Below, piece after piece: positions 3,756 through 64,000 of a stretch of 64,000 bases of DNA (its first letter is position 1; every line of letters starts with the position of its first letter). The notes beneath the pieces are model-generated. The model saw only the letters and a list, made by a program, of their open reading frames with translations. It did not search any database and was not told where the DNA came from. This stretch comes from a virus. Taxonomy: Duplodnaviria; Heunggongvirae; Uroviricota; Caudoviricetes. The translations under genes and the position numbers were made by a program. The stretch spans positions 31,934 to 95,933 of IMG/VR virus record IMGVR_UViG_3300028591_000112, one strand, 5' to 3'.

Positions 3756-6700
3756 ATGAGTAGTGTTAATTATGAAAATCAAATCTTAACTGCTATTGAA
3801 ACACTAGTTGATAGTGCAGTTCAATCAGCTGGTTATGATAAGACGATTAAGGCAACTATCATAAATCAAACTAATGCGGCTATTGGTGAATATAAGGTAA
3901 AATACCAAGATAGTGTATTTTATGCTTATTCAATAGATACTGCAATAGTATATCCTAAAGATACTTTAGTCTATATTCAAGTTCCTGGTAATGACATGAA
4001 ACAAGTCAAAACCATTATTGGGGCAGTAAATAAAGATGATATAGATTATACTGAAGTTCTTGAAACAGAAGATTACTATGATGCGGTTGGCGGCAATAGT
4101 TGTAATAGTGAAACTACATATGGTTTATGCTCATATAATGGTGAAACTAATATAACTTTATACGACAGAGATAATAGTATTAATTTAGTTAATTATGATG
4201 AAGATTTGCTAAAAACTAATCTAAATGAAATGTATAATATTATTTGCGGCGCTTGATTTAAAACTGCTTTAGCAGATGAACAGAAAAAGCAAGGTAATTA
4301 TGGTATTACATTTGATATAGATTTTTATGATGATTTAGATAATACGAAGGTTATAACAAAAACTTATACAATAGATGTTAATAATATTGAAGGAAATCCT
4401 TATAATTTACTATCATTTATTCGTCAAATCAGAATTTTTGAAATTAAAAGCGAAAATTATGTAAATGTTAAAAAAATTGGCTTATTTTGTAAAGGTTTCC
4501 CAAATACAGAAGTAGGTCATGAAAATGATATATTTATTAAAATGCCTATTTTACAAGCGGCAAGAGAAATTCCTGAAGTCGAATTAAATGGTTATTCAGT
4601 TAAAATAGAAACTGATAAGAGTTATTTTAACAGCGAAGATGCGGAGGACGCGCAAACGAGCATTTCCGCAATTGCTAAGATTAAGGGTCATGAAATTGGC
4701 TCAAAGAGATCTGTTCAATATTATTGGTTCAGAGAAAATTCAGATATTTATCCAACTATGACTGGTTATAATACTTATGGTGGTGCAGGTTGGGAATGTT
4801 TAAATGAATATAACATTCTTGATTCTACTACCGGAGAAATAGAGTATATAACAAATAATAAGACTTTAACAATAGCAAAAACAGATTGTGTTGCTACTGA
4901 TAATAAATATAAAGTTGTAGTTATATTTAATGAAAATGGCACAGTAGAAGCGGATATAAATATTAAAAATTATAGTTCAGCATTTACTTTATCTATTGCA
5001 TCTGATGAAGGTACTGAATTTTATTATGGTAATGGAAGTCCTACATTAACATTATTAATTAATGGTGTAGAAAGTCCAGCTAATTATACTTATAAATGAG
5101 CAAAAGAAGATAATAATGGGTTATTCGAAAATCTTGAAGAAACTACTTCAGTTAATTCTACATATAATACATTAGTATCTAATTATAATACTCTTTTAGC
5201 TAGTGTTGCAAATGAGACTGTTTTACCTAATGCGGCAAAAGCACAGTTAGACACATATAAAAATCAAATTGCGGGATATGATGAAATAACAAGAGTAGAA
5301 GGTAAAAAAGTTTATAACATACAAGTTAATGAAATTGATGAATGAGCAACATATAAATGTACTGTATATAATAGTGGCGATATAATAGGTACTGCCGCAA
5401 TTACATTAAATAATTATCCTAAAATTGAAGGAGAATTTACATTAAATATTATAAATGGTACTCAAACATTTAATTATAATAGTGCAGGAATTGCTCCAAC
5501 AAGTCAAACATTACAAAGACCAATGGAATTAAAACCATTAAGTTTTACTATTGTTGACAATAAAGGTAACTTACTTCCTGATAGAATATTAAATTTATGT
5601 AATATACATTGAACTGTTCCAAGTGGCAATAGTTTAATTCAAGCAACAGATAGTACTGATTTAACTCTAGATTATACTCTTGCTGAAAATTATGATATAA
5701 ATTTAATTAATAATAGTAATATTAAATTAGATATTCAATATCAAGAATTGATATTACATGCGGAAACTAATTTTACTTTTATAAAAGATGGACAACCTGG
5801 TACTAATGGTACTAATATTATTTGTAAAATTGTTCCTTATACTGATGATGATTTTGATGGTTATCCAGTATTATATTACAATGGAAATGGAACAACATAT
5901 GGTACTCATTTTAAATTAAACTATACTCCTAATTCAAATTATAGATGGTTTAAATTACAATTATGGGAAAATGGTAGTTTAATTTGGGAAGGCGTAAATA
6001 GTCAAAAAAGCGGAAATGTAATAGTTAAATGGGAAGTTTTAAAAAGCAATTATACTAGTTCAGTTTCTGATTTATCTCATATTAGAATTACTGAAAGTAG
6101 TGGAACATCTGAAACAACTCATAATTATTCATTTTTCTTTAATAATATAGATAGTAATTTAGCTACATATCAATATGCAGCTGATATTATCAGAGGTGAA
6201 GTTACATATAAAGATAAAAAATATTATTGTACTTTACCATTAATAACTGTTAAAACAAATGATTGAACTAATTTTAATTATGAATTAGTTAAAAATAGTG
6301 GATTTAGATATGTGCTTTATACAAGTGATGGAATGTATCCTCAATATGAAAGTGATACTCCATTTACATTAAAAGTTACTGAAAAAATAAATGGATTTAC
6401 AGAAGATATTAGTAATTTAACTACTAATGCACATAAATTAACTTATAATTGAGGAGCATGCGGAAGTTCTTATTATAATGGTAATTGGCATCAAGATATT
6501 GGCTTAATTGAACAAACAATTGCCGCAAATAAAGGTACTTATGTTCCTATTGAAGAATGTGATGGTAGAAATGTTACTCATGCAATTAGAATTGCAATAA
6601 GTCAAAGCAGAAGTCAAATTGCTGAAATTCATATTCCAGTACATTTTTATTTAAATAGATATGGTGTTTCTGCATTAAATGAATGAGATGGAAACCATAT

Positions 6701-9700: not shown

Positions 9701-10343
9701 GTCAGCTAGTTCAGCATTGCAACAAGATTTAGAGGAAGCAAATGCAAAATTAAACGAAATAACAACTGAAGGAACTGGTGCAATTACAATATCTGGAGCT
9801 AATTTCTATGCTACTGACGCAAGTCAAGAAAATAGATTAGTTATTAATAATCAAGGACTTGGTTTCCAAAAGAAAAATACACAAACAGGTGAATGAGATA
9901 CAGCAACAAGTGTTTGGTCTTTAGATGGAACATTTGATGCTCAAAATATCAATGTTAAAAACTTAAATGCTGAATCTATTGTTAATGGTGATTTAGCAAT
10001 AGGTAAGAATTTTGGTAATAATCCAAATAATGGAGTATTAAAAATATATGATGAACAAGACCATTTAATTATCAAGGGTTCTGGTAGCGATGGTCTAGCA
10101 GTTTCCGCAACTAATGCAAATACTGCGGCAGCAGTTCATACAAAGATTACTCCAACAACAGGTATTGAAGGTTATGATAATGCTCATAATAAAGTATATT
10201 ATCATGATAATGATAAATTTGTTGCAAATAAATTAAATATTACTGAATCTATTACAATAGGTTCTATAAAAATAGTTATTATTAATAGTGCAGAACATAA
10301 AGGTATTGGTTTTGTTACTGCAAGAGATAATAGTAATAGTTAA
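3756..10343 (+). CDS. giant tail-tip/baseplate protein (2195 aa), putative distal tail + tail-associated adhesin
   Basis: Preceded by RBS aaaaggagga. A single frame is open 3756-10343 under code 4; I translated the gaps between the five ORF-track fragments and found only TGA, with TAA at 10341-10343. N/T/S-rich, adhesin-like composition. Position directly after the tape measure gene. Confidence 0.6.
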
Positions 10344-14101: not shown

Positions 14102-14129
14102 ATTTTTTGCATAAAAAGGAGGAATAAAA

Positions 14130-17100
14130 ATGGCACAAGTTAGTTTTTATAAAATGCAAAATAGTGCATTATCTTCTTTCCCTATTAAAGAAGGACAAAT
14201 AATTTATGTTACAGATAGTAAAAGATTATATTTAGATAATGCTGCTAATTCAAGAATAGAAATGACTTCGTATAATTTAACTCAAGATAGTAATAATAAT
14301 CATATATTAATTTTTACAAAGCCAGATGGTACTACAGTTAGTTATACTATGCCAGATACATTATATAATGGCGGAGATCATATAATTATAGATGAAAATA
14401 ACAACATTGATTTAGATGAACAAACAACTGATAGAATTTATGGAGTAGCTACAAAAGAAGGTTCTGGAGAAACAGTTTCATTAGTAGATACAAGAGAAGC
14501 AAAAATGAAAGTTGGTTTAAAAGGTAATACAAGCCAAGAAACAACAACAGGGAAGAATTTGTTAGGTGTAAAAACTAATTTAAAAAAAACCACAACAAAT
14601 GGCATAACTTTTACTCCTGTGTTTAATTCAAGTAATTTATTAGAATATATTGAAGTTAGTGGTACTTGTACTGCTGCAACTACATATACAATATCAAATT
14701 CCGTTTCATTAACTGCAGATAGTTATCTATTAAGTGGATGTCCATCAGGTGGTGGTGCTAATACATATGGTTTAGAATTACGTGGAGGAGCATTCCCAAA
14801 AGATGTAGGCAGTGGTCGTTCATTTACTTTAACAAATGATTTCACATTTTGGGATTGTAGGATAACAATTGAAAAAGGTGCGACTTTATCTGCGTTAAAA
14901 TTTTATCCAATGCTAGTTCAAGGAACAACAGCTACTGACTACGAACCATACACAGGTGGGCAACCTTCACCTAACCCTTCATACCCTCAACCTATACAAG
15001 TAGTAAGTGGAGATAATACAATTGTTAGTACAGGGGTAAACCTATTAACATACCCTTATGTAGATACACCTAATAGTCCAAAGACTACCAATGGACTAAC
15101 TTGGACTGATAATGGAGATGGAACAATAAGTGTAAGTGGAACTGCAACAGGTTATAGTGATTTTGTATTATTCAATACTAACAAAAAATTAATGGTACAA
15201 CCAAATACAACTTATAATTTGAGTGGAATACCAAGTACGGCTTATCTAGTTTTTGATTTAAGTGAGTTCGATAGTGATAATGCTTTAATAGTTGTACACA
15301 ATAATATAAGAAACTCATCTTTTACAACTTCACCTAATGCAAGATGGCTACAAATAATAGCAAAAAGAAGTTCTAATAATCAAGCAACTGATACAATAAT
15401 AAAACCACAACTAGAATTAGGAAGCCAAGCTTCAACATTTGAACCATATACAGGAACATCTTATCAAGTAAATCTAGGTAATATAAAACTATGTAAAATA
15501 GGAGATTATCAAGATAAATTCTTTAAAGCAATAAATGGTAATACAATATACGATAGTTTAGATAGTACAATAAAAAATACTTTAGATTATGGTGAATGGT
15601 ATTTAGAAAAGAATATAGGTAAGGTTGTATTAGATGGTAGTGAAAGTGGATGGACTAAAAACCCTAGCATTACAACTACAAATGGTTATAGTAATAATGC
15701 TTTATTTCCATATAGAGTAAGTAATAGTGGAATATATTGTAATTATTTAAAACAAGTACTATCTTTAAGTGGTAATAAAACAGGCATATATAATGCAACT
15801 AATTGCAATTTCTTATTAGAAGGAACTGATTATGATACCGAAATAAAATTTAAAAATTGGTTAAGCACATATACACCAATAGTTTATTATCAAATGTCAA
15901 CACCAACATATACAAAAATAGAAGGTACACTAGCAAGTCAATTAAATGCAATAGAATATGCTATGTCTTATAACGGACAAACAAACATAACACAAGTAAA
16001 CAATGATAAACCATTTATAATAGATGCAAGTGCAATAGCAGGACTTAGTTTAAATAGTTTAGAAGAAGAAATAAATAGAATGGATTATATTTCTCAATCT
16101 GAAAAAGCTGCACCTAATGGTGTTGCTGAGCTAGATGACCATGGAATTATCTTATCTTCTCAATTACCTAGTTATGTAGATGATGTATTAGAATTTGCTG
16201 ATATGGCGTCTTTTCCAGCTCAGGGAGAAAATGGTAAGATTTATGTAGCGTTAGATACAAATTTAACATACAGATGAAGTGGAAGTGCTTATGTTGAGAT
16301 AAGTAAAAGTTTAGCACTAGGTGAAACTAGCTCAACTGCCTATCGCGGAGATAGAGGCGCTGCCGCATATAAACATGCAGTTACTAATAAAGGAAGTGCT
16401 TTTGCAAGTAATCTTTATAAAATTACTACTAATAGCGAAGGTCATGTAACAGCTGCGACTGCTGCAGTAAAATCAGACATAATTAATTTAGGAATCCCTG
16501 GCACTGCAAGTAACGGAGTAAAAATAAATGAAACAGATATCCAATTAGATGATAATGTTAATAATTTACTTTATGGAAATGAAGAAGTTATTGCAACTGA
16601 TGTTGAAAATGCTAGTTTAAATAATACATTACAAGGAAAATTAAATATAGAATTAAAAGGTAATACATATCAAGAAACAACATCAATAAGTGGTGGAGAT
16701 GAATATGATAGTCCAAGTCCTGACCACCCACAACCTATACAAGTAGTAAGTGGAGATAATGAGGTTGTTGTATGTGGGAAGAATTTATTAGATGTAAATA
16801 ACAATTTAATAAGTAGTATTCAAGGGTTAAGTTTTGTTGCAAATAATAATGGCTCATTTAGTTATAGTGGCACTTTAGAAAGTCATACTTGGGTTAATTT
16901 TATGAATAATGTTGGTACATTCATAAAAGCAGGTGAATATACAATATCAATAAGTAATTCTTTAAATTTTAATCTTGTTTGGTATTTTCAATACGAAGAT
17001 GGAACTAACAATACTTTCAGTATAACATCGGGCGATACATCAAGGACTATAACACTACAAAAAAATGTTGTTAGACATAGAGTAGGCTTTACATTTATGA

Positions 17101-18356
17101 CAATAGGTACAACATATAATGGTACATTAAAAATAATGCTTGAAAAAGGTTCAATTGCAACCTCATACCAACCATATCAAGAGCAAAAATATCCAATAAA
17201 TTTAGGTGTAGAGAATTTATTTGATAAAAATAATGCTAACGTATTAAATGCTTATTTATCAGGTTATAAAATTCTTGGTTATGCAACAAATCAAACTATA
17301 TATATACCAATAATAGGAGGTACAACTTATACTGTAACTAAAAAAGTTGGTGTAACAAATTTATCTCTTGCTTATACAACCACAACACCAACTATTGAGG
17401 GTGAAACTCTTGGAACTATAACAGCTACAAGCAAAACATATACAACTACTTCACCTATTAATGCTACGTTCTTATGTGTATTTGTAAGAAAAGATAGTGA
17501 TAGTGATTATACATTAGAAGAAATATTAGAAGGTTTAGAAATAGTTAAAGGTGATAAAGCACAACAAGTAAGTGATAACCCAATAGAACTATGTAATATA
17601 CCTAATACAAATTATCAAGATAAATTCTTTAAAGCAATAAATGGTAATACAATATACGATAATTTAGATAGTACAATAAAAAATACTTTAGATTATGGTA
17701 AATGGTATTTAGAAAAGAATATAGGTAAGGCTGTGTTAGATGGTAGTGAAAATTGGGTATATCCAACACAAATAGGAAGTAGTACATATTATAGATACGA
17801 AAATCAAAATTTTAGAAATAACGATTGTATGGTACATAGTCAATATTTAAGTGATAATTTTAAATACAATGGTACAACAGGACAAGTAGAACAAAATGTA
17901 ATCACAAATACTTCTGGTGCAAACACTAATAGATTATGGATAACAATAAATACATCTTTAACGAGTGGAACTACTGAAAATGATTTCAAAATTTGGTTAT
18001 CAACACATAATACAAATATCTATTATGTTTTAGAAACACCAACTTATACAAAAATAGAAGGTACACTAGCAAGTCAATTAGAAGATGTATGGAGAGCAAA
18101 TACATACGATAATCAAACTAACGTAAGTCAAGTAAATAATGATTTACCATTTATTTTAGATGTTTCAGCTCCAACATATACTATAAATGGAATGAATAAA
18201 GAATATGCACATAAAGAAGATGCAATTAATAAAGTAACCTCTATTTCAGATTCTTCTACAGATACTCAATATCCTAGTGCTAAATGTGTATATGATTTAG
18301 TTGGTAATGTAGAGACTATTCTAGAAACATTAGATATAGGAAATGGGGTATCATAA
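14130..18356 (+). CDS. tail fibre protein 1 (1408 aa) carrying two tandem receptor-binding cassettes
   Basis: Strong RBS aaaaaggaggaataaaaATG. ORF-track fragments 14130-16277 and 16902-18356 are the same frame, joined via TGA at 16275 with no TAA/TAG between them; TAA at 18354-18356. Internal duplication of a ~450-aa module (PNPSYPQPIQVVSGDN ... LCKIGDYQDKFFKAINGNTIYD ... QVNNDKPFI). Confidence 0.65.
15507..15624 (+). repeat. near-identical ~118-nt repeat inside the fibre genes (second copy 17613-17730)
   Basis: tatcaagataaattctttaaagcaataaatggtaatacaatatacgata...ttagatagtacaataaaaaatactttagattatggt...aatggtatttagaaaagaatataggtaagg occurs twice with about 3 mismatches. Confidence 0.8.
15975..16027 (+). 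repeat. 53-nt exact repeat at the fibre cassette C-termini (second copy 19985-20037)
   Basis: ggacaaacaaacataacacaagtaaacaatgataaaccatttataatagatgc is identical in fibre 1 and fibre 2. A related copy at about 18110-18165 encodes QVNNDLPFILD. Confidence 0.8.
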
Positions 18357-38095: not shown

Positions 38096-39188
38096 CGTTT
38101 TTTCCTTATGTTACCATAAGCACTGACTATATCTTCTGCCTTGCGGCAGCCTTCTGCTTCGAGCTGGTGCTTATCTCCAGCCCTACTCCCTTACATTCAT
38201 CAGGGATAGTCGATACACTTTATTTTAAAATTTCAATAATATAACCTTCAATTTGAGGTCTTTCACCTTTTGCTATCTTAGCAATTATTTGTCTACTAGG
38301 TAATTCAGGCATCTCTCTTTCTACTTCTCTATAACTTTTAAATATTTTAATTTCATTAGTAAGAAGTATTGTAATTTTAATTTGAGTTCCTTTTCTTCTA
38401 ATATTTGTAGATACTGTATATTCATTAGTATAATCATCATTTTCATAAGCAATTAATCATTCATCTCTAAATAATTTTTTAATTTCATGATTACATCTTC
38501 TTGAAATGAACTGATGATTATTTTCATTAAAGAATTGTTGCATTTCAGATTGACTTCCAAAATGATATTCTTCATTAGTATTTATATTTTTACATTTAAC
38601 TCCAGTAGCATTTGGATTGTTAGCTCCTAATTTTGAAGCTCTTATTTTTTCACTTATTGTAGCAAGTTCTTCTTTAGTCTTACTCTGATAAGTATTTCCG
38701 CCACTTTTATTTGTAGCATCTGTTTCATTGTAACCATTCTCAATACTGTTATAATATCTAATCCAATACTGTTCCTTTTGAGTTAATTCTTCTTGAGTTT
38801 CTGCAGTATCTATTATTTCTGCTTTAAAATTATCTACTCCATAATATCTTAATGCTCTTGCAAAATGAGTATCAATAATATTATTTAAAGCATCGTTTTT
38901 ATGTCTATTAAATCTTTCTTCTAAAGTTCTTATTGTTTGTCCAATATAAACTTTATTATTTTTTAAATTTGTTATTTTATAAACTATCATAATAAAATCT
39001 CCTTTTCTTTTTCACCAATATATGAAAAATTGTACGGTACATTTTATTAATTTTGTTCATTTTTTTATTGAAATTTTAAAATCTTAGCACGGTCTCATCC
39101 TATCTTTAGGACCTAACCGTTAGCGGCGTTTCCGCCACACCCATTAAGCATGGTTCAAAAGGTTTTAGATGAGCTGTAGTTTACACTT
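38096..39188 (-). other. group I intron (IA-like) interrupting nrdD at STMG|CRT
   Basis: 5' exon ends in U (ATGGGT). Intron ends in G (aaaaaacg) before TGTAGA. Splicing restores the conserved NrdD TMGCR motif. Contains a T4 td-like core GUAUCGACUAUCCC and carries a GIY-YIG ORF. Confidence 0.7.
38220..38990 (-). CDS. GIY-YIG homing endonuclease within the nrdD intron (256 aa)
   Basis: RBS aaaaggagattttattATG. VYKITNLKNNKVYIGQT...YWIRYYNSIENGYN (GIY-YIG). Continues through TGA at 38457-38459 into a C-terminal putative DNA-binding extension; TAA at 38220. Confidence 0.75.
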
Positions 39189-43688: not shown

Positions 43689-44707
43689 CGTTATCCACCA
43701 TTTCTGATGGCGTAGACTATATCTTATTCTTTAAATATTTTCTATAAAATAACCACAGTAATATCCATTTCCTGCCCTAGCAGCTTTTAATCCAGCTCTT
43801 GCGCTTTCTACTTTAGTAGTTTTACATATTTTATTTTCTACAAATCATTCAGCACAATCTTTTACGGAATCAAATTCTTTATGAAAATCATTTTTACTTA
43901 TCATAATTCTTTGTCCAGCTGCTTGTCTAAAACTAAATCTTGGAATATTATTTTGATTTAATATATCATCTACTGTTGAATGATTAATTCCAAAATTTAA
44001 TGCTGTTTTTCTTGCACTTCTAGTTTTATAATAATCTTCAATAATTTCTTTATTTGGAAGCATTTTATGGTATTGTTGACCTCCAAATGTTTCATTATAT
44101 CCTTTTACAAAACTATTATAATAATCTATCCAATAAATTTCCGCCTTATCTAATTGTTCATAAGTCTCTATATTATCTTGAAGAACTTCAAAAGTAAAAT
44201 TTTCAATTCCATATTTTCTCATAGCTTTATATAAAGTTTTGTTAATACAATTTGGATGATTGATATTTATATTTCTTTTATGTTCTTTTCATCTTTCTTC
44301 AGCAGTTTTTATTGTTTGACCAATATAACATTTATTATTTATTTTATTTGTTATTTTATAAATTAACATATTAATCTCTCCTTTTCTATTATTATATGAA
44401 AAGTAGATTAATATTTTTCTACCTTTTTGACCAAAGTGGTAGAAAATATTTAAAGATTTTCGCACTTCGAGTAGTAACTCATCTTCTACTCTACTCCTTT
44501 CGGATAGTCGTTACACCTTGCGGCGACTGCCGCCTTGGCACTGGATTACCTTCAACTTTACTTGCTAAGGTTTCCCTGTTAGCATAAGAATTAATTAACC
44601 ATTTCCTGTTAAAACTGTTCGTTTCTTACACACCCTTGAGTAACAAGGTTCACGAAATTTTTTATACTATACATTACTGTATAGGGCACCTATTTCTTAA
44701 AAGTTCT
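43689..44707 (-). other. group I intron interrupting dnaE at KWSLPFWRF|DLNKERV
   Basis: 5' exon ends CGCTT (U). Intron ends ...gataacg (G). The joined exons give a continuous alignment to the DnaE consensus KYNLLFERFLNPERV. Core GUAACGACUAUCCG (+ strand 44491-44514) resembles the T4 td intron P7 region. Confidence 0.6.
43724..44369 (-). CDS. GIY-YIG homing endonuclease within the dnaE intron (about 215 aa)
   Basis: RBS aaaaggagagattaatATG. LIYKITNKINNKCYIGQT...YWIDYYNSFVKGYN. Two in-frame TGA codons (44222, 43845). TAA at 43724. Confidence 0.7.
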
Positions 44708-51005: not shown

Positions 51006-52544
51006 TTAAAAGGCACTAGCTGATATAGCCGGATTAATTTTAATTTTTAAATCTGGCAATTCAACTAATTCATAATTATATGTTGTAGCAAACATTGGTT
51101 CGATACGGCATATTCCTCTATCTGCTTTACACCATAATAAAATATCTTTATATTGACCTCGTCTATTTTTATATATAGACATTTTTATAACAGGTTCTGG
51201 TAAACCTTGTTTAACTAATAGTGGTTTTAGCGCCTCTCTATCTTCTTGAGATACTTGTAACATAATTGCGCCATAATCAACTTTATCTGCAATTGCTTTT
51301 GCACCACGCAATAAATTTTGGTCATATTGTTGCGCAGTAACATAGTCCGCATTTAATTGAGTACTTGTTAAAATAAATACTCCATATTCATTACATAAAT
51401 CTTTTAATCTTATTGCTAGCATAAATAAAACATTATCTTCTCTTAATCCTTTTATTCCTGCTTTAGAAGAAACTTCTCCTAATATTTTTAAAGATGTATG
51501 TAAATAATCAAAGAATATATATCTTACTCCCCATTCCTGTATTCCATATTTAATTGCATTTTCTATGTCTTGTAAACTAAAATCTGGCAATCTCTTAATA
51601 TGTAACGGAGATGTTTTTATAAGTTTTGCAGCTTGCATAACTCTATCTAACTCTCCATCTTCATATTTATTATATATAATATGAGCTTCATTAACGCCGC
51701 TTAAAAAAGCTAACATCATAGTTTGAATTTCATCAATTTCTTGTTCTGTTGTTATATATAAAGTAGGTTCTTTTGTTCCATTTGTATCCCATTGATGCGT
51801 TTCTAGATTATATATTTGATCGCAAGCTATATTACATGCATCTGCGATCATAGCACGAGTTTTTCCTACTCCGGTTGCCGCAGAACGTAAATATAATTTT
51901 TTTAAACGAGCTCCACGAGTAACAGTATTAATTAAAGGGCCGTACATTGGATATCCTATTTCTGGATTCTTTTGTAATCGTTCAATTAATTCATCTATAT
52001 CATTTCCAGCTTGAACATATTCTTCATCTGTTCCATCAACATATTTTAATTTAATTGTTGTTATTTTTTTATCTATAATTTCTGCTATTTCTTCAAGAGA
52101 GGTATTATCTAACCAATCTTCTTGTGCTTGTTTTTTCTTCCCATCTAAAATATTATCTACATCATATAGCCAAGATAAGTCCATACCAATTCTATCATAT
52201 TCTCTTAATAAAGTAAATTTTTTCATACGAGTATAATAATAATCAAATGTTGAAATTTGAACTATTTCAGATAATTGTTGTAAATACTCTTGTCCTTTAT
52301 TTTCTTGATATATTCCATATGATTTCGGTCTATTATATAAATAATCTTCAATAGCAGTAATTGTTATTTCTTTTGCTCCTAATGCATGTAAATTGAAAAT
52401 TGAACCAAATAAAATTTTATGAAATTCATTAGAGAAATCTTCTTCATAAAATTTATATTTTTCATTATCTAATAGATTAGGATTATTAAAAATATTTCCT
52501 ATAACTTGTATAGTAGATGGTATATCTTCATATTTACTTTTCAT
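51006..52544 (-). CDS. dnaB: DnaB-like replicative helicase
   Basis: Walker A RSAATGVGKTRAM, Walker B IFFDYLH, RecA-like C-terminal domain. No TGA in 512 codons. Confidence 0.8.
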   Translation of the reverse strand: MKSKYEDIPSTIQVIGNIFNNPNLLDNEKYKFYEEDFSNEFHKILFGSIFNLHALGAKEITITAIEDYLYNRPKSYGIYQENKGQEYLQQLSEIVQISTFDYYYTRMKKFTLLREYDRIGMDLSWLYDVDNILDGKKKQAQEDWLDNTSLEEIAEIIDKKITTIKLKYVDGTDEEYVQAGNDIDELIERLQKNPEIGYPMYGPLINTVTRGARLKKLYLRSAATGVGKTRAMIADACNIACDQIYNLETHQWDTNGTKEPTLYITTEQEIDEIQTMMLAFLSGVNEAHIIYNKYEDGELDRVMQAAKLIKTSPLHIKRLPDFSLQDIENAIKYGIQEWGVRYIFFDYLHTSLKILGEVSSKAGIKGLREDNVLFMLAIRLKDLCNEYGVFILTSTQLNADYVTAQQYDQNLLRGAKAIADKVDYGAIMLQVSQEDREALKPLLVKQGLPEPVIKMSIYKNRRGQYKDILLWCKADRGICRIEPMFATTYNYELVELPDLKIKINPAISASAF

Positions 52545-53046
52545 TTTCTTCCTCCTCTATGCTGAATAATTTTGGTGGTTGAACATAAACTTGCGGCGGC
52601 GCAATTTCAATTTCTTCAACTTTATTATTAATTCGTTTACCTTCATTTATCATATTTGCAATAAATAATCCATAATAATAAGTTTTTGCATCATTATAAA
52701 TATAAGGTAAAATCCCTATTCCGCCATTTGCATCTTCTATAGAATTTCTTTTTATTTCAAACCACCATTTTAATGCTTTTAACATTCCGCTATAAGTAAA
52801 ATTATATTGTTTTTTATAATCTGTTATTTGTCTTGTTATTTTTGCGGGAATTGCTGTATAACAATATGTTTTTTTAATATATTGTAATAAGTTTTCATAA
52901 TCTATTTCTTCTTGCGTTTTATTTGATTGAACTTCATCATGACATTTTTTATGCGCATATCTACGAGCACTTACTGCAACTCATTCTTCTTGGTTTCTAT
53001 CAAACTGCTCTCCGCAATAATAACATTTTGCTATTAATTTAGCCAT
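52534..53046 (-). CDS. zinc-ribbon protein, possible helicase loader/replication accessory (170 aa)
   Basis: Strong RBS taaggaggcggaaATG. CYYCGEQF...AHKKCH. One TGA. Lies immediately upstream of dnaB. Confidence 0.35.
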
Positions 53047-55246: not shown

Positions 55247-56152
55247 TTACTCGTTTCCTTTTTGGCTATTAAATCCAAATTGATTAGATTGATATAGGTT
55301 TATATAGAATTTTTCTTTTTCATTAAGCTCTTCTTTTTTACATTTTTCTAGTAATTCAAAAGAAAAGTTCTCTAAACCATCGCTTATCATTGATTGATAT
55401 AGTTTATTACCTGCGGGGGTGTCGATCCCTAGACCAGCTTTAGCATGGTTTTTCCAACGTGTAGCCATTTCAGTACTTTGTCCTATATAAACAAAATTAT
55501 TTAATTGATTTGTAATTTTATATATCCCGCATACTTCTGCGGTAGATGAGCCTAAAACATTTGCACACACTTGATTCATAGGTTTTTGATAATAACTTTG
55601 TCAAATTAACATACGAAGAATACGCGTGTCATTTAATTTATATTCAATATCTTTTAAAATTTTAACATCTTTTAAATCATTTTCTTTAATTTGAGGACAA
55701 TAGAAAGATTTTTTATCTTTTATTTCCTGTTCTTTTAATTGCGCTTCAAGTGCGGCCGCCCTCGTAGAGAATAATTTATCGAGGTCTTTCTCGATCAAAC
55801 CGGTTTCCGCAAGTAATTTATCTTGTCTTTTTTCATAGCTCATTTTAAGAACATTTATTGCGGTATCAAATTCTTCTTCTGCCTCTTTATATTTATTATC
55901 TAATACTTTTTGATATTGTGAAAAAGCATTTTGTGTAATTTGTTCAGTATTGTTAACTGAATTATTTAAATTTTCTATTTCTAATATTATATTATCTTTT
56001 TGTTTTTTTAAATTTTCAATTTCATTATTTAATATTTTTTGTTGATTAATTGTATTTTTATTTATTTCTATTGTTTTTATATTTTTCTTTTTTCATAAAT
56101 ATCAAAAAATTATTACTAATAATAGTAAACATATAATTATAATATCTTTCAT
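55247..56152 (-). CDS. membrane-anchored coiled-coil protein fused to a C-terminal minimal GIY-YIG nuclease domain (301 aa under code 4)
   Basis: N-terminal TM helix IIIICLLLLVIIFWYLW, then a long coiled coil. TGA at 55601-55603 in frame, then GIYKITNQLNNFVYIGQS...ATRW...EKFYINLYQSNQFGFN. I checked the frame codon by codon from 56152. Confidence 0.45.
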
Positions 56153-56164
56153 TTTTAATACCCT

Positions 56165-56205
56165 TTCAAAAAGAAAAGTTGAGTATTTCTACTCAACTTA
56201 GTTAT
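56165..56205 (-). terminator. rho-independent terminator
   Basis: Minus strand aagttgagta gaaa tactcaactt ttcttttt. Confidence 0.55.
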
Positions 56206-56616: not shown

Positions 56617-58533
56617 CTAACAAAACTTTAATCTAAATTCATCTTCCGTAATAATTGGTATTCCGGATTTTTTAGCGGCAATATTTTTGCTTGATTGACT
56701 ATTTATATCGTTATTTATTAAATAAGTTACTTTGCTAGATATAGAATCAACCACTTTACCACCCTTATTTTCAATATATGCTTTTAATTCATTTCTATTT
56801 TTAAATGTTAATAATTTACCTGTAATACAAAACACTTCTTTACTTAAGGTATTATCTTCTTTTTTATCATCTTTTTCTTGAATATTAAAAGCATATGATA
56901 CAACTTCATCAAGCTCTTTATAATTGAAATCTAAAAGAGCGGCGGCCATTGCTTCACCAAAACCATTATATTGTGTGAAATCAAATTTTGAATTTACCTT
57001 TTCTCTAAATTCACCATAAGTTTTAATATATTTACATAACTCTTTCGCAATAGAGCGGCCTATTAATGGGATACCAGCTGCCGCAAGGACAGCATCTAAA
57101 CTTGGATTTTTACTATTTTCTATGGCGTTCAAGATCCTCTCCACAGACTTTTCACCAAAGCCTGGTTTTGTTTTCCATTCATTTGAGAAGTTTTCTAATT
57201 TATATATATCAACAAAATTAGAAATCCAACCCCAGTTTATAAGTTTCTCGAGAGTTGCCGTTGAAAGCCCCTTAATATCTAATCCAGTTTTTCCACAAAA
57301 ATGGTCTAATCGGTTTATCAATTTACCTTGACATTGTGTATTGGTACAATATAAGGTAACTACTCCATCATTTTCATTTAGACGAGTAGCTCCGCCGCAT
57401 ATAGGACATTTATCGCATTTAAATTCAGATATTGTTAGCGGTTTTTGTTCTGCTTTTGATATTTGTGGTATTATCATATTTGATTTAAATACCCATATTT
57501 TTTGACCTTTATAAGGTTGTCCTAATAGTTCTGACATGATACTTACATTATGTAAACTTGCTCTTGAAACCTCTGTTCCGTCAATTTCAACAGGATTAAA
57601 AATAGCAACAGGTGTAAGTATACCAGTTCTACCCATACTCCATTCAATATTCTGTAAATAAGTTTCATATTCTTCATCATAAAATTTATATGCTATCCCA
57701 CCTTTAAAATGATGGTCTGTTTTTCCTGCCGCATCATAAATTCTATTTAAGTTATATTTAAAAACTACACCATCAATAGGATAATTCTTTATATCAGATT
57801 GTTCTTTTATATAACTAATAATCCAATTAATATTGGTTGAAGTATCTACAATAAAAGGGACTGTTGTAAAACCCAAAGTATCTAATAAATGTAATTCAGA
57901 TTCTAGACTAATAAACTTATTATCGTTATCAATAATATCCCATGCAATAAAAGTTAATTTTCTTTTTGAACTTTCTTTACTATCTAATAGTCTAATACTT
58001 CCTGCAGCAAAATTTCTAGGATTTTTATATTCATTTTCGAACTCTTTAAAATCTTCATAAGTACAAATAATTTCTCCATCAATAATTAATTCATCATTAT
58101 AATTTATTTTATTAGGAATATTTTTTACTTGTAAAGCATTATGTAAAATATCTTCTCCAATTTCGCCATTGCCGCGAGTTTCTGCAGAAAATAATTTACC
58201 ATTAATATATCTTAATGAACAAGTTAATCCGTCCATTTTTGCCATAGCAATATATTCTTCTTTATCACAAAAAGACGCTATTACATTTATATCTTTAGTT
58301 TTATCAAGAGATAACATAAGATGATTATGTTTTACTTTTTTTAAATCATTTACTAATTGGTAATTAATATTTTGAGTAGGACTATCTTGATAATATATAT
58401 TATATTTATTTTCTAAATTTTGTAATGTAAAATACATATTATCCCATTCACTATCTGAAATTTCTGGATGTCCTTCATCATATAGTTTAGTATAATAATT
58501 TAATTTATCAATTAAATCTCTAATCTCTTGCAT
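56617..58533 (-). CDS. ligA: NAD-dependent DNA ligase
   Basis: KMDGLTCSLRY (KxDG adenylation motif), OB fold, Zn finger CDKCPICGG, HhH and C-terminal BRCT. 638 codons without TGA. Confidence 0.8.
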   Translation of the reverse strand: MQEIRDLIDKLNYYTKLYDEGHPEISDSEWDNMYFTLQNLENKYNIYYQDSPTQNINYQLVNDLKKVKHNHLMLSLDKTKDINVIASFCDKEEYIAMAKMDGLTCSLRYINGKLFSAETRGNGEIGEDILHNALQVKNIPNKINYNDELIIDGEIICTYEDFKEFENEYKNPRNFAAGSIRLLDSKESSKRKLTFIAWDIIDNDNKFISLESELHLLDTLGFTTVPFIVDTSTNINWIISYIKEQSDIKNYPIDGVVFKYNLNRIYDAAGKTDHHFKGGIAYKFYDEEYETYLQNIEWSMGRTGILTPVAIFNPVEIDGTEVSRASLHNVSIMSELLGQPYKGQKIWVFKSNMIIPQISKAEQKPLTISEFKCDKCPICGGATRLNENDGVVTLYCTNTQCQGKLINRLDHFCGKTGLDIKGLSTATLEKLINWGWISNFVDIYKLENFSNEWKTKPGFGEKSVERILNAIENSKNPSLDAVLAAAGIPLIGRSIAKELCKYIKTYGEFREKVNSKFDFTQYNGFGEAMAAALLDFNYKELDEVVSYAFNIQEKDDKKEDNTLSKEVFCITGKLLTFKNRNELKAYIENKGGKVVDSISSKVTYLINNDINSQSSKNIAAKKSGIPIITEDEFRLKFC

Positions 58534-58549
58534 ATGTATCTCTCCCTTT

Positions 58550-58578
58550 CTTTATATATATTATAAGATAATTTTTAT
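58550..58578 (-). promoter_or_regulatory. consensus sigma70/sigmaA promoter for ligA
   Basis: Minus strand TTGCAA, 17-nt spacer, TATAAT, upstream of RBS aagggagag. Confidence 0.5.
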
Positions 58579-58599
58579 GTTATTGCAAATTTCTTTATA

Positions 58600-58631
58600 T
58601 GAAAAAAGTGTTGTTATAATTTAACAACACT
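58600..58631 (-). terminator. terminator hairpin overlapping the gyrA stop
   Basis: agtgttgtt ataattt aacaacact followed by ttttttc on the minus strand. Confidence 0.45.
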
Positions 58632-60941
58632 CTTAACATTATTTTGAATAAGTTTAACTCCAATAGTAGTTCTTCCTTGAGTATTTAATTCAGTTGCGGG
58701 GATACATATACTATTAGGAGTTCCTATTAATAATAAACTATCATCATTAGTTATTGCGGCCGCACCTGCAAGGTTAATACCTAATTTTAATCCCTTGCCT
58801 CCGCGTCCTTGTAATGAGAACTCAGATATATCACATTTTTTCCCATAACCCTCTACACTAATAAAAGCTATTTCTTTTGTATCTTTAGAGATAGGAATTC
58901 CGCAAACAACCTCATCATCACTAGCTAAATTAATACTTTTTACTCCACTAGTTACTCTACCTATTGCCGCAATATCTTTAGTAGTAAATCTTATGCTCAT
59001 ACCATTTTTAGTACAAACTAAACATTCTTCGTCCTTCATAAATAAAACATTAGCAATACTATCGCCATCTTTTAATTTAATAGCTTGAGTTCCTGTAGAT
59101 TTTTTAATTGATTTATATTCACTTAATAAAGTCTTTTTAAATAAACCTTGTTTTGTTATAAATACTACATAATCAGCATCTAAATCTCTGTCCATACTTG
59201 CGGCAGCAATAATTTTTTCATTTGGTTCCATGCTAATTAAACTAGCTAAATTTTGTCCTTTTGATACATTTGTACCAATAGGTAGTTTATCAACTAATAT
59301 TTTATACATTTTACCTTTATTAGTAAACACTAATAAGTTATCAATAGTATTAGTTTTTATAGTGGCTAAAATTGCATCATCTTCAGATTTAATTCCTTTT
59401 CCGCCTCTTTTTTGAGTTCTAAAACTTGTTTTAGGAATACGTTTAACATCTCCAGTTTGAGATACCATTACAACAACATCTTCAGGGATAACTGTTGCAA
59501 TTTCTTTTTCTTCTTTTGGAACTTCAATTTGTGCTAGTTCAGTTTTTCTTTTATCTCCATATTTTTTAACTAAATCAGATAATCTTGTTCTAATTATTGA
59601 TAATTGAGCATCTTTATTGGTTAATGTATAATTATATCCATCTATATCATGTTCTAACTGGGCTTTTTCTTCATTTAATTCTATCTTTTCTAATTTCGCA
59701 AGAGAACCTAATCTCATAGCTACAATAGATTTTGCTTGGGGTTCAGTAAATTTATATTCTTTAACCAAACCTTCTTTTGCGGCAGCACTTGATTCAGACT
59801 TTTTAATAAATGTAATTATATTATCAATATCTTCCAATGCTTTAATTAATCCATTTACAATCTCTAGGCGGGCTTCCGCAGCATTTAAATCAAATTTAGT
59901 TTCTTTAATTAAACAATTAATGTTATGGTCTAAATATATTTTAATACAATCTTTTAAATTTACTTCTGTTGGAGTTTTATCTATTAAAGCAACTTGATTA
60001 TATGAAAAACTACTTTGTAAATCTGTTTTTGCAAACAATCTATTAGCTATTGCATCAGGATTAACTCCTTTTGCACATTCTACAACTATTCTTAAACCTT
60101 TTTTATTACTTTCATTTCTAATATTTACTATTTCCGCAATATCAGTTTCTGCTACTTCACCTATTTCCGCAATAAGTGCTTCTGTTGTAGTACCATAAGG
60201 AATTTCATAGAATACGATATTTTGTCCTTCAGTTTTATATTTAGCTCTAACTTTTACACTTCCATGTCCTGTTTTCATGATACTTGGAATATCATTCATA
60301 TTAATAACAATTCCGCCTGTTGGAAAATCAGGGCCAGGTAACATTGGTTCTTTACCGTCCATATAATCATATATAGCTGTTGCTACTTCTCCTAAATTAT
60401 GTGGGGCAAAATTACAAGCCATTGCAACACCAATACCTGTATTTGGATTACATAGTAAATTAGGGAATATAGCAGGTAATGTAACTGGCTCTTCTGCATC
60501 TTCAGAGTAATTAGGAATAAAATCTACATTTTGCTTTTTAATTCCTTTTAACATACCGTCTTCTGCAAGTTTAGATAACCTTGCTTCTGTATAACGCATA
60601 TGAGCAGGACCATCTCCATCAATATTTCCATTGGAACCATGGACTTCGATTAGAGGGTACCTCATAATCCAACTTTGGGAAAGACGAATCATTGCTCCAT
60701 ATATTGAACTATCTCCATGAGGATGGTACGACCCCATAACATCTCCTACAATACGAGCAGATTTTACATGTGGCTTAGAACTCCCATATCCACGTTCAAA
60801 AGCCCCCCATAATATCCTTCTAGCTACTGGCTTTAGTCCTGAGGTAGCGTCGGGTATAGCTCTGTCTTCATTTACTGCTGCGGCGTACTCAATAAAATTC
60901 TTACTTAATTCATTTATAATGTCATTAGTTTTGTTATCCAT
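58614..60941 (-). CDS. gyrA: type IIA topoisomerase subunit A (GyrA/ParC-like)
   Basis: RAIPDATSGLKPVARRIL, YHPHGDSSIYGAMIRLSQSWIMRYPL, MRYTEARL (active-site Tyr region). 775 codons without TGA. My own indexing puts the ATG at 60940 (one off from the ORF track). Confidence 0.8.
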   Translation of the reverse strand: MDNKTNDIINELSKNFIEYAAAVNEDRAIPDATSGLKPVARRILWGAFERGYGSSKPHVKSARIVGDVMGSYHPHGDSSIYGAMIRLSQSWIMRYPLIEVHGSNGNIDGDGPAHMRYTEARLSKLAEDGMLKGIKKQNVDFIPNYSEDAEEPVTLPAIFPNLLCNPNTGIGVAMACNFAPHNLGEVATAIYDYMDGKEPMLPGPDFPTGGIVINMNDIPSIMKTGHGSVKVRAKYKTEGQNIVFYEIPYGTTTEALIAEIGEVAETDIAEIVNIRNESNKKGLRIVVECAKGVNPDAIANRLFAKTDLQSSFSYNQVALIDKTPTEVNLKDCIKIYLDHNINCLIKETKFDLNAAEARLEIVNGLIKALEDIDNIITFIKKSESSAAAKEGLVKEYKFTEPQAKSIVAMRLGSLAKLEKIELNEEKAQLEHDIDGYNYTLTNKDAQLSIIRTRLSDLVKKYGDKRKTELAQIEVPKEEKEIATVIPEDVVVMVSQTGDVKRIPKTSFRTQKRGGKGIKSEDDAILATIKTNTIDNLLVFTNKGKMYKILVDKLPIGTNVSKGQNLASLISMEPNEKIIAAASMDRDLDADYVVFITKQGLFKKTLLSEYKSIKKSTGTQAIKLKDGDSIANVLFMKDEECLVCTKNGMSIRFTTKDIAAIGRVTSGVKSINLASDDEVVCGIPISKDTKEIAFISVEGYGKKCDISEFSLQGRGGKGLKLGINLAGAAAITNDDSLLLIGTPNSICIPATELNTQGRTTIGVKLIQNNVKSVVKL

Positions 60942-60942
60942 T

Positions 60943-61656
60943 ATTAAAATCCTCCTTTTCCAATAATTTATCTATTGTTATATTATTAAAATTCTTATAA
61001 GAAATTTCTATCAATTTTTTATTATTATTTATACACCATTGTTTTTTTATTTTATCTCTTTTTATTTGATTTGTCAATTTTTCTTTTGTATTTCAGCCTA
61101 TATTTAATGTTTCATAGTGTTGACTACCTTGATATTCTATTAAAATATTGTATTCAGGAAGAAAAAAATCAAACCTTAACTTAGCATTAGTTTCAGGATT
61201 AATGCAATCTTCAAAAGTTTTTTCTTTTTCAAAAATGATATTATTTTCTTTTAGAAGATTAGATATTCTTTCTTCGCCTAAAGATTTAATGCATCCACAA
61301 GAATGTGTATGTCCTCTTCTTAAATCGATACCATTTACAATGATTTGATTACCGCATTTACATTGACATAATCAAAAAACATCTTTATTAGCATTATTCT
61401 TCTTAGCTTTTTCTATAACTGTCAGCTTCCCATATACATTTCCTATTTCTTCTTTTATAAGAGATGCTCTATTTTTATCATCAGGGCATCGTGTAATTTT
61501 TTGTAAAGAATCAGATCTTACAGAATGAATCTTATCACAATTATCACAAGAGCATAACCAAAATGCTCTTTTTTGTTGATTTGTTCTGTCTATATCTAAT
61601 TTTATTACTGTCAAAGGTCCAAATTTTTGACCTGTTAAATCTTTTCTATTCGGCAT
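60943..61656 (-). CDS. free-standing endonuclease: tandem Cys-rich DNA-binding repeats + Vsr/PD-(D/E)xK-like C-terminal domain (about 237 aa)
   Basis: Two repeats (GQKFGPLTVI...FWLCSCDNC and VYGKLTVI...VFWLCQCKCG...HSCGC); the second Trp is encoded by TGA, giving an internal control for TGA = Trp. C-terminal FDFFLPEYNILIEYQGSQHY resembles the Vsr/DUF559 nuclease core. Inserted between gyrB and gyrA. Confidence 0.5.
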
Positions 61657-62218
61657 TATAAGAAGCCTCTTTACTATGAAGTTTGATGAAATCTTTACGA
61701 CTTTGAATAGCAGTCCCCATTAAATCATTAAATAATTTATCTGCGGCCGCCGCATCATCAACAGTTATTTGTTTAATAATTCTATTATCGGGATCAGTTA
61801 GTGTTTCTTCAGTTTCGTCTACGGACATTTCACCTAAACCCTTCATTCTATTAACAGTTATTTTTTTATCTCCTATTGATTTTTTAAATTCTTCTAATTC
61901 TTCATCATTTTTAATATATTTATATTCTTTACCTATTGTTACTTTATATAATGGTGGAACTCCTGCATATATATATCCATCTTCAATTAATTGAGGACAG
62001 AAATTCCATATAAAAGTATAGAACAAATTTTTAATATGCGCTCCATCAACATCAGCATCAGATTCAATAATAATTTTGCCATATCTTAAACTATCTTTAT
62101 CATAAGTAACTTGCATAGTTTTAGTATCAATATATAATCCAAAAGCATCTATCATAGTCATAATTTCCGCATTTTTTTGTATTTTATCTAAACTTGCTTT
62201 TTGTGTATTAAGTATTTT
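61646..62218 (-). CDS. gyrB: type IIA topoisomerase subunit B (GyrB-like), exon 2
   Basis: Starts KILNTQKASLDKI (completing RG|KILN). Contains GKIIIESDADVDGAHI and YAGVPPLYK. TAG at 61646. Confidence 0.7.
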   Translation of the reverse strand, partial: KILNTQKASLDKIQKNAEIMTMIDAFGLYIDTKTMQVTYDKDSLRYGKIIIESDADVDGAHIKNLFYTFIWNFCPQLIEDGYIYAGVPPLYKVTIGKEYKYIKNDEELEEFKKSIGDKKITVNRMKGLGEMSVDETEETLTDPDNRIIKQITVDDAAAADKLFNDLMGTAIQSRKDFIKLHSKEASYNAE

Positions 62219-63356
62219 CGTTTTCCCTTATATTTCTATAAGAACTGACTATCTCTTACTCTCTGAGTTTGTCATCACTCTTCTTCGAGCACTCCATTTC
62301 GAACTGCGTATCAATAGCAGCCCTACTCCCAGTCTAACCCGGGATAGTCGATACATGAGTTAATCTACATTTTTATAAGTTTCTCTTTTTATAATTGCTG
62401 CAATAGAACTTTCAGATAAATTATATTTTTCTCCTAATTCTCTATAACTAACAACTCCTTTTTTATAAGAATTTCTTATTTCTTTTACTTGGACATTAGT
62501 AAGTTTTGCATTAGTATGTCTTACCTGTTCTTTGTTTGGAATATTTCCAACAGTGACATAAGTTTGACCTAAAACTATTCTTTTAAAAGTTTGTTGATTT
62601 GAATATAAATCTTTAAAATCTTGATAAATTTCTTTTATTGGTTCTCCATCAATATATCTTTGTCTAATATCCCAAACTTGTTGATTTGTTAGTTTTGCTC
62701 GAGGATGATTTTCACTCATTAAAGATTTATTTTGTTCCCTTGTTTTTTGTCTTTTTAATTCGGTTTCTTCAGAATAAATATTTGGACTCCAGTATTGTCC
62801 ACCTTCAGTTGAATTATATCCATTTTTAAAAGTATCAAATTCTTTTATATATTTAATTTCTAAATCATCTAATTCTTTTTCTTCACATAGTTTTAATATA
62901 ATTACTTCAAAATTATCAATTCCATATTTTCTAAGAGCTTGATAAAACTTAGTATTATAATTACAATTATTTTCATTCTTATAATCTACTAAATGATGAC
63001 TTTGAAATCTTTTTCTAATATTTTTGCTTTGTCCAATATATTTTTTATTGTTTATTAAATTTACTACCATATAAATTCCACTATTAGCTGGTAGATTTTC
63101 TATATTTTTCATATTTATCTCTCCTTTGTCAATAATATATGAAAAATAGTTTTAAGTATTTATATATTTTTGTCCGTTTTTAGTATTTTAGATTAACATT
63201 TTCACACGGGATTACCTTCGCCTAAACATATTTTGACATATATGTGTAACGGTCAGGCTTCCCCGTTAGCATACATTTCTGTACACCCCACTGATAAGTG
63301 GTTAGAAGTGTAGAGGCAAATATTATTTCGGTATAGCCTTACGCTATCCTAAGTCT
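62219..63356 (-). other. group I intron interrupting gyrB at PVRG|KILN (TOPRIM)
   Basis: 5' exon ends AGAGGT (U). Intron ends ...gaaaacg (G). Core GUAUCGACUAUCCC and CAGCCCTACTCCC are identical to the nrdD intron. Carries a GIY-YIG ORF. Confidence 0.65.
62360..63112 (-). CDS. GIY-YIG homing endonuclease within the gyrB intron (250 aa)
   Basis: RBS acaaaggagagataaatATG. GIYMVVNLINNKKYIGQS...KYIKEFDTFKNGYN. TAA stop, no TGA. Confidence 0.75.
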   Translation of the reverse strand: MKNIENLPANSGIYMVVNLINNKKYIGQSKNIRKRFQSHHLVDYKNENNCNYNTKFYQALRKYGIDNFEVIILKLCEEKELDDLEIKYIKEFDTFKNGYNSTEGGQYWSPNIYSEETELKRQKTREQNKSLMSENHPRAKLTNQQVWDIRQRYIDGEPIKEIYQDFKDLYSNQQTFKRIVLGQTYVTVGNIPNKEQVRHTNAKLTNVQVKEIRNSYKKGVVSYRELGEKYNLSESSIAAIIKRETYKNVD

Positions 63357-64000
63357 ACCTCTCACTGGCATTACCGCTTGGAACTCATTATCTCTTGCTG
63401 ATTTTAAGTTTCCGCTTGCGGAATCTCCCTCTGTGATATATATTTCACATTTGTTTCTATCTTTTGAATAACAATCAGCAAGTTTACTATCAAATTTTAA
63501 TGCTTTTTCTTTTTTCTTATTAGTTTCTCTTACTCTCTCACGAGCGTTTTTAGCTGCCTCTCTAGCTTTACGAGCGGCTGCCGCCTTATCAAAAATAGTT
63601 TTAATTTCTTTTTCATTATTAACTAACCAATATTGTAAATTAGTAGCAATAATAGTAGAGAAATTGCTCATATCTAATTTAGTAACAGTTGATTTTACTT
63701 GTGCATCATATGCAACATTAGGGGCAGTCATATTAAATACTATATACATACCTTCTTGTATATCATCTCCTGTTAAATTTTCTTCTTTATCTTTTAACCA
63801 TTTTTTATCTTTAAAGAATTTATTAAATTCTCTTGTAATTATAGTTTTAACTTGCGTTATATGAGGGCCTTTCTCTGTAAGACCTGTATTTACATAAGGA
63901 ATTAATGTTAATGAATAATTAGATGTATATGTTAATACCATGTCTAATTTTTCTTTTCCTTCTGCATACTTCATGTCAAATCTATTTGATATAATTTCTT
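63357..64000 (-). CDS. gyrB: type IIA topoisomerase subunit B (GyrB-like), exon 1 (3' part; N-terminus beyond the window)
   Basis: Transducer domain LTGDDIQEGMYIVFNMTAPNVAYDAQVKS and TOPRIM start EIYITEGDSASGNLKSARDNEFQAVMPVRG. The reading frame continues upstream past 64000. Confidence 0.7.

Follow-up and report, generated by a model that had tools for sequence, protein, structure and literature searches.

A probable free-standing Vsr-like homing endonuclease gene at the gyrB-gyrA junction of a phage that reads TGA as tryptophan

The DNA analysed here, called the window throughout, is a 64,000-nucleotide (nt) stretch of a Caudoviricetes phage genome (positions 31,934 to 95,933 of IMG/VR record IMGVR_UViG_3300028591_000112) with a G+C content of 28.6%. 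On its minus strand, the topoisomerase genes gyrB and gyrA are separated by an open reading frame (ORF) that starts with an ATG at 61656, ends with a TAA at 60934-60936, and comprises 240 codons plus the stop when TGA is read as tryptophan. A preliminary reading made without database searches (the sequence-only reading) had recognised an ORF between gyrB and gyrA and gave it limits of 60943-61656 and a length of 237 amino acids (aa). The ORF is present, but its true limits are 60934-61656 and its product has 240 aa. It encodes two cysteine-rich modules followed by a nuclease domain with the fold of the Vsr endonuclease, and is referred to below as the Vsr-like ORF. No paralogue of it was found elsewhere within the window.

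In the ORF list produced with translation table 11, the Vsr-like ORF appeared only as two fragments, 61372-61656 (94 aa) and 60934-61077, and annotation will overlook or split it unless TGA is taken as tryptophan. Two in-frame TGA codons account for the fragments, and both sit at tryptophan columns conserved in the family. Codon 95 (61372-61374, minus strand) is the tryptophan of the FW-LC motif of the second module, at a column (W95) where at least 90% of family members have Trp. Codon 188 (61093-61095, minus strand) is the tryptophan of a conserved GW motif and aligns with W86 of Vsr. The orthologue at the related viral locus L006 contains no TGA codon, and P0003, the protein it encodes, carries Trp in both places. 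Recoding was evident across the window: stop-to-stop ORFs of at least 100 codons summed to 53.6 kb under the standard code and to 79.8 kb under code 4. Because ORFs of 1215, 2207 and 1414 codons (for example plus-strand 3-3647, 3723-10343 and 14115-18356, with 11, 18 and 1 in-frame TGA codons, respectively) are open under code 4 only, the whole window requires TGA to be read as tryptophan. No tRNA gene, and hence no suppressor tRNA, was found within the window. The Vsr-like ORF is under purifying selection, with a ratio of non-synonymous to synonymous substitution (dN/dS) of 0.10-0.27 against the orthologues in L001, L005 and L006, similar to that of gyrA; L010 was left out of this set since an in-frame TAG shifted its codon alignment.

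The N-terminal half of the protein contains two tandem modules, each with the layout G.LTVI, about 13 residues, FWLC.C..C, and then a distal Cys motif. Module 1 (61471-61641, minus strand; approximately residues 6-62) reads G.LTVI...FWLCSCDNC...C57 and is a variant with CxCxxC and a single distal Cys. Module 2 (61285-61455, minus strand; approximately residues 68-124) reads G.LTVI...FWLCQCKCGN...HSCGC, the canonical family form. The duplication proposed from sequence is real: local alignment of the two modules scored 66, whereas shuffled sequences averaged 23.4 (z = 8.6), and the module, present in 2 to 8 copies in family members, has the consensus DLTGQxFGxLTV...WxCxCxCGN...V.G..L..G...SCGC across 112 homologues. 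Residues C97, C99, C101, C120, G121 and C122 of module 2 were invariant in these homologues, and the predicted local distance difference test score (pLDDT) of this module exceeded 90 in the full-length model. The modules are presumed to bind zinc and to recognise DNA.

The Vsr-like (EDxHD-type) nuclease domain occupies 60961-61284 on the minus strand (approximately residues 125-232). The structure was modelled on P0001, a protein 93% identical to that of the window, with the family alignment (mean pLDDT 93.3). The catalytic domain of this model has a Vsr-type restriction-endonuclease-like fold, and a Foldseek comparison with the PDB placed Vsr at the top (1cw0, 1vsr) with a probability of 1.0. 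Searches of PDB sequences with the single sequence and with the family profile gave no significant match, and the relationship to Vsr is visible by fold comparison only. The sequence-only reading had likened the C-terminal FDFFLPEYNILIEYQGSQHY segment to the Vsr nuclease core and looked to profile searches of the PDB for corroboration; the likeness is borne out by the fold match and the Vsr alignment, with the PDB match coming from structure and not from sequence or profile.

Alignment by hhalign to what we take to be the E. coli Vsr sequence paired E128 with E25, D163 with D51, E174 with F62, Q176 with H64, W188 with W86 and D201 with D97. H180 paired with the His69-72 cluster of Vsr, around which gap placement is ambiguous. 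The Vsr residue numbering agrees with that in PMC3239194 and PMC2677866. The EDxHD residues of the homing endonuclease I-Bth0305I are E170, D196, N208, H213 and D222 (PMC3239194), and E128, D163, Q176, H180 and D201 match this composite E-D-x-H-D motif as it occurs in I-Bth0305I and in Vsr (E25, D51, H64, H69 and D97). An additional invariant Glu at the position of Vsr Phe62 was noted by Dassa et al. 2009 (PMC2677866); it is represented here by E174, which aligns with F62. The candidate catalytic residues are E128, D163, E174, Q176 (the 'x' position), H180, D201 and K204. Across the 112 homologues, E174, H180, D201 and K204 are invariant and E128 and D163 occur in at least 90%, and the window protein keeps all of them. 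The C-terminal family consensus is IKSxGExKI..IL.ENNI.F..QKTF..C....T....RFDFY....N.LIEYDG.QHF.....GW...E.....Q..D..KN.WCK.NNI.LIRIPY. The catalytic core reads E174-Y-Q176 (family consensus E-Y-D) with a downstream His, as in Vsr-like enzymes, and lacks the contiguous (D/E)-x-K motif of canonical PD-(D/E)xK homing endonucleases of the I-Ssp6803I type. In the L005 orthologue (6001-6723, protein P0002), the metal-binding Asp163 is replaced by Asn (AAT), and LPEY by LLEY. The Asn at 163 suggests that some copies may be decaying; the L005 copy may have been inactivated, a sign of the usual decay cycle of homing endonucleases.

Domain databases described the protein poorly. Scans of Pfam and NCBIfam with the Vsr-like ORF returned only a sub-threshold match to Phage_endo_I, hmmscan gave no match to CapR, DUF723 or DUF4379, and no NUMOD or helix-turn-helix (HTH) family was found by Pfam in an N-terminus made up of two Cys-rich, strand-rich modules. 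Its homologues match Pfam DUF2726 (45 of 112), DUF5889, PvuRts1I-like_N and RAP. The best PHROG matches (E down to 5e-29) are labelled homing, intron-encoded or 'HNH' endonuclease. By tblastn, 531 phage records matched, mostly with Firmicutes hosts and often with 2-4 copies per genome, under the annotations 'HNH endonuclease', 'homing endonuclease' or hypothetical. The 'HNH endonuclease' label is unfit for the window protein, because neither the H-N-H motif nor the beta-beta-alpha-metal fold was found in it (no Pfam match to HNH) and the one nuclease-like domain detected has the Vsr fold. An exhaustive phmmer search recovered 57,851 cluster representatives at E <=1e-3 and 15,099 at E <=1e-10. 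Among the homologues, one copy in Staphylococcus phage BE24 lies between fragments of the terminase large-subunit gene, and the neighbours of the homologue in Bacillus phage BpSp are all annotated as hypothetical, with no link to published examples.

A GyrA scan of viral contigs yielded 35 related loci, whose junctions were read by tblastn under code 4. The loci L001-L015 carry the Vsr-like ORF at the same position between gyrB and gyrA, and that is also where all four of the nearest homologues (93, 85, 74 and 58% identity) are found. At least 12 relatives (L016-L023, L026, L027, L038 and L046) have no ORF at this point, the gyrB stop overlapping the gyrA start; their GyrA is 77-85%, and their GyrB C-terminus 87-95%, identical to that of the window. 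The insertion polymorphism that had been proposed as a check of mobility therefore exists, and the distribution is that of a mobile element, with sporadic presence at a defined site among close relatives. Synonymous divergence (dS) points the same way in part: the ORF dS between the window and L001 or L005 (0.37, 0.40) is below that of gyrA (0.65, 0.88) and gyrB (0.72, 0.64), and against L006 it is not lower than that of the flanking genes.

Other ORFs were seen at the same junction. L024/L025 (4211-5001) carry a 38%-identical member of the Cys-module/Vsr-like family, L029 (1913-2816) carries a GIY-YIG ORF, and L034 (3086-4070) carries a 328-aa ORF with an IDGKQRLTT motif reminiscent of DUF262/ParB-type nucleases. 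ORFs of about 70 aa occur in L028, L037, L042 and L010, that of L010 being Cys-rich. The gyrB-gyrA junction is a recurrent landing site.

The insertion is precise at both ends. Upstream, the end of gyrB (...TATAATGCCGAATAG) overlaps the start of the Vsr-like ORF (ATGCCGAATAG...) by 11 nt (61646-61656, minus strand). In ORF-less relatives, where the junction reads ...AAGGAGGCTACATATAATGCAGAATAATGAT and gyrA begins MQNND, the gyrA ATG (...TATAATGCAGAATAA) is found in the place taken here by the ATG of the Vsr-like ORF. Downstream, the 3' end of the Vsr-like ORF (60934-60957, minus strand) contains a Shine-Dalgarno-like AAGGAGGA at 60950-60957, and the final 8 nt of the ORF overlap a new gyrA ATG (60939-60941), from which the window gyrA begins MDNKTND, not MQNND. 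The 93, 85 and 74% homologues have overlaps exactly as in the window; at the 58% homologue the gyrA overlap is 20 nt and an extra 70-aa ORF usually lies upstream. This arrangement suggests that the Vsr-like ORF captures the gyrB-coupled start used by gyrA in ORF-less relatives, and that its 3' end provides gyrA with a new ribosome-binding site and ATG, so that the topoisomerase operon would still work. A promoter and terminator scan found sites no commoner than in shuffled sequence, and because promoter-like sites occur at this frequency no promoter of its own is claimed for the Vsr-like ORF. The best sigma-70-like match in the region (61049-61077, minus strand; TTGACA, 17 nt, TAAAAT; 11/12) is located within the ORF, towards its 3' end and some 110 nt ahead of gyrA, and is probably a chance match in AT-rich DNA.

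The presence of the Vsr-like ORF is linked to a sharply bounded haplotype. Four carriers (the window, L001, L005 and L006) were compared with eleven ORF-less loci, and a column was called diagnostic when the two classes had no state in common. In gyrA, 38 diagnostic columns fell within nt 1-300 and 1 within nt 301-1499; the last 516 nt of gyrB held 5, all within the last 40 nt. The block that co-segregates with the ORF therefore covers the first 300 nt of gyrA (60642-60941, minus strand) and has its left edge in the last 40 nt of gyrB (61646-61685, minus strand). Against ORF-less loci, identity of the window was 66-71% in gyrA nt 1-300, rose to mostly 75-91% in the ~1.6 kb that follow, and dropped to ~61-75% towards the gyrA 3' end; against carriers it was 77-91% over the first 300 nt. 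Codons 1-100 of gyrA differed between classes with a proportion of synonymous differences (pS) of 0.60-0.85, near saturation, and a non-synonymous value of ~0.15, versus 0.26-0.6 and 0.02-0.08 within a class. Codons 101-500 showed no class structure, and there the window was nearest to the ORF-less locus L016.

The densest diagnostic clusters lie at gyrA nt 249-269 and 291-300, just 5' of the active-site Tyr codons. They include a fully synonymous recoding of R-L-S, which is AGA TTA TCT in most ORF-less alleles and CGT CTT TCC in three of the four carriers, as well as the change PLIDWHG to PLIEVHG. The first 300 nt of gyrA are presumed, from these alignments, to be a co-conversion tract carrying an immune (uncleavable) variant of the target. 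The haplotype pattern is as a free-standing homing endonuclease predicts, and it therefore places the likely cleavage target near gyrA nt 250-300; the candidate recognition and cleavage site in ORF-less alleles corresponds to 60642-60693 on the minus strand (gyrA nt 249-300), where the diagnostic differences are densest.

These results indicated that the Vsr-like ORF is probably an active or recently active free-standing Vsr-like homing endonuclease that spreads by double-strand-break repair, and the sequence-only reading of it as a free-standing homing-like endonuclease is supported by the fold, the catalytic residues, the family and the presence/absence polymorphism. In the mechanism we propose, the enzyme would act on co-infection with a related ORF-less phage: its Cys-rich modules would direct it to the ORF-less gyrA allele, which it would cut within the 5' region, with nt 250-300, immediately ahead of the codons for the active-site tyrosines, as the likeliest place. 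Recombination with the ORF-carrying genome would then mend the break and copy, along with the Vsr-like ORF, ~40 nt from the end of gyrB and ~300 nt from the start of gyrA, and the interval between the cut and the endonuclease gene would always be co-converted. The 5' segment of the carrier gyrA differs at many positions, several of them synonymous, and would therefore escape cutting. No recombinants with the gene linked to a sensitive target would be seen, since the enzyme itself would cut them.

An alternative is that a formerly mobile endonuclease gene is now fixed and vertically inherited in one phage sub-lineage, where it is kept for a different task: its product might, for instance, exclude or degrade the genomes of competing phages, or regulate the topoisomerase operon by binding DNA at a specific site. 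Several observations weigh in its favour: the junction position is shared even by carriers whose protein is only 58% identical, translation of the ORF is built into the gyrB-gyrA operon, purifying selection acts on the ORF, and phage satellites have turned related zinc-finger modules into a repressor (CapR; PMC10055350). However, the gyrA of the 12 or more ORF-less relatives is, beyond nt 300, closer to that of the window than is the gyrA of most carriers, and a sharp, ORF-centred haplotype block is what nuclease-driven co-conversion and immunity predict. Every catalytic residue is retained, and the ORF dS lies below the flank dS in two of three comparisons. We consider a fixed gene unlikely.

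It is far less probable still that the protein serves in repair as a nickase of the Vsr type, or belongs to the general PD-(D/E)xK nucleases of housekeeping or defence, and is not a selfish element. Vsr is indeed its best structural match, and PADLOC gave matches to PD-DEXK models at E ~1e-4; this similarity is weak only, and for that reason a defence system was rejected. In the hhalign alignment, the positions of Vsr Cys66/Cys73 and of the intercalating Phe67 and Trp68 are replaced (Ser, Gln) or gapped. The protein carries sequence-recognition modules typical of homing endonucleases, and its gene is polymorphic as an insertion between two genes. Neither a partner methyltransferase nor genes of a defence system were found nearby. 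That the gene is a pseudogene broken at codons 95 and 188 into a 94-aa N-terminal fragment, as the table 11 frame and the lack of a suppressor tRNA within the window might suggest, is scarcely credible and was rejected, because TGA is read as tryptophan genome-wide, with both TGAs at conserved Trp columns, and because purifying selection acts over the full length in orthologues that keep the frame, L006 doing so with Trp and no TGA.

Use of TGA was uneven among the window genes, with none in ligase, gyrA, gyrB or 51006-52556 and many in the large plus-strand genes. Non-overlapping Trp codons (4 per Vsr-like ORF; neighbours 0 of 14-16) were compared in three tests that are not independent of one another: TGA/TGG was 2/2 in the window ORF versus 0/15 in gyrB, gyrA, ligase and the GIY-YIG ORF (56617-63974; Fisher p 0.035), the excess over neighbours was similar in L001 (p 0.03), and L005 had 3/1 versus 0/14 (p 0.005). 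In L010, a sister phage in which gyrB, the ORF, gyrA and ligase follow in the same order, the recoded stop is TAG and not TGA. Codon 27 of the L010 ORF (6001-6741) is an in-frame TAG, given as Gln in the database protein P0005, and the genes next to this ORF have none; a lysin-like gene of L010 (1-2642) has 8 in-frame TAG and no TGA. Related phages therefore differ in stop-codon reassignment. It is conceivable, though doubtful, that recoded stops gate the full-length nuclease to late infection: TGA or TAG would be read as stop early and as sense later, so that full-length endonuclease would be made late only. If true, such gating would time cleavage and homing to the period of many genome copies and spare the early operon.

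The Vsr-like ORF is not the only predicted nuclease gene in the region. Four GIY-YIG ORFs in the window pass the Pfam threshold, at 38220-39083, 43731-44510, 55247-56188 and 62360-63112 (all minus strand), the last with a Pfam E of 4.8e-11. In the ORF at 55247-56188, the GIY-YIG domain is C-terminal; the N-terminus is hydrophobic, and a long, charge-rich region comes between the two. Together with the Vsr-like ORF these make five nuclease genes over ~26 kb (38.2-63.1 kb), and the earlier count of five in about 37 kb holds at the domain level. The ORF at 62360-63112 is borne by a ~1.1 kb insert (62225-63350) that splits gyrB at the conserved PVRGK|ILN motif. In L001 gyrB is uninterrupted and encodes 638 aa, and L006-L008 carry a GIY-YIG ORF at the corresponding place. 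Rfam detected no group I intron in the window, and none in the gyrB insert even at E up to 1. In the more distant L042 (1704-2768) and L043 (3710-4783), gyrA is interrupted after ...NPN(T/Q)GIGM by a GIY-YIG-bearing insert.

Both the kind of element, a free-standing Vsr-like/EDxHD homing endonuclease in phage, and its architecture are already in the literature. 'Presence of group II introns in phage genomes' (NAR 2025, PMC12350094) described homing endonucleases with CapR-like repeats and an EDxHD/Vsr-like domain as a 'large unrecognized outgroup', with three to five CapR/DUF723/DUF4379-like modules of ~60 aa and a C-terminal EDxHD/Vsr-like domain of ~100 aa. The window protein is likened to that outgroup by its architecture of tandem ~60-aa Cys-rich modules followed by a ~100-aa Vsr-like nuclease, by its occurrence in phages whose hosts are of the Firmicutes type, frequently as multiple copies and within introns, and by family size (thousands of matches there, 57,851 cluster representatives here). 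It differs in having two modules and not three to five, the first a variant with one distal Cys, and this copy is free-standing in a gene junction, not intron-encoded, in a TGA-recoded phage. Modules of a comparable kind were described by Barth, Dunham and Seed 2023 (PMC10055350), in whose account T5orf172 and other phage homing endonucleases carry repeated CapR/DUF723/DUF4397 zinc-finger modules, and their genes cluster beside essential genes and mark the boundaries of genetic exchange. The 'beads on a string' arrangement of small zinc-finger-like modules fused to a nuclease is shared; in contrast, the nuclease is T5orf172/GIY-YIG-like there and Vsr-like here, and the module motif is CxxC...CxC there and W-C-x-C-x-C-G ... 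S-C-G-C in the window family.

The gene of the EDxHD prototype, I-Bth0305I (PDB 3r3p; Taylor et al. 2011, PMC3239194), lies within a group I intron of recA, and the N-terminal motifs of this enzyme are of the NUMOD/HTH type, whereas the window protein is free-standing and has Cys-rich, beta-rich modules. Such an N-terminus describes the prototype and may not define the wider EDxHD class. Dimerisation and a pseudopalindromic target are known for I-Bth0305I (PMC3239194). Hef and the Vsr-like endonucleases of 'fractured genes' (Sandegren et al. 2005, via PMC3239194; PMC2677866) resemble the Vsr-like ORF in being free-standing, between or within essential phage DNA-metabolism genes, and polymorphic in presence among relatives. 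The examples given there replace other mobile genes or split a gene with a split intein, whereas the window insert occupies a natural overlap of two genes with both translational couplings rebuilt, and its N-terminal region is of another kind. E. coli Vsr (PDB 1cw0, 1vsr), a mismatch nickase, consists of one domain and possesses a zinc site of its own as well as the intercalating Phe67/Trp68; in the window protein these last two positions are not conserved and two recognition modules are added.

The element is well documented but ordinary, and leaves the current understanding of homing endonucleases unchanged. What is new here is the exact geometry of an insertion in an overlapping junction, the two-class haplotype that predicts a target, and the ORF's need for an alternative code. 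Our literature search found nothing specific on homing endonucleases between phage gyrB and gyrA, and no characterised member of the Cys-module/Vsr-like family. The haplotype boundary yields a specific prediction of the target that can be tested, in a family numbering tens of thousands of proteins, and could open the first biochemical characterisation of an abundant nuclease family that is often mislabelled 'HNH' and was recognised only in 2025.
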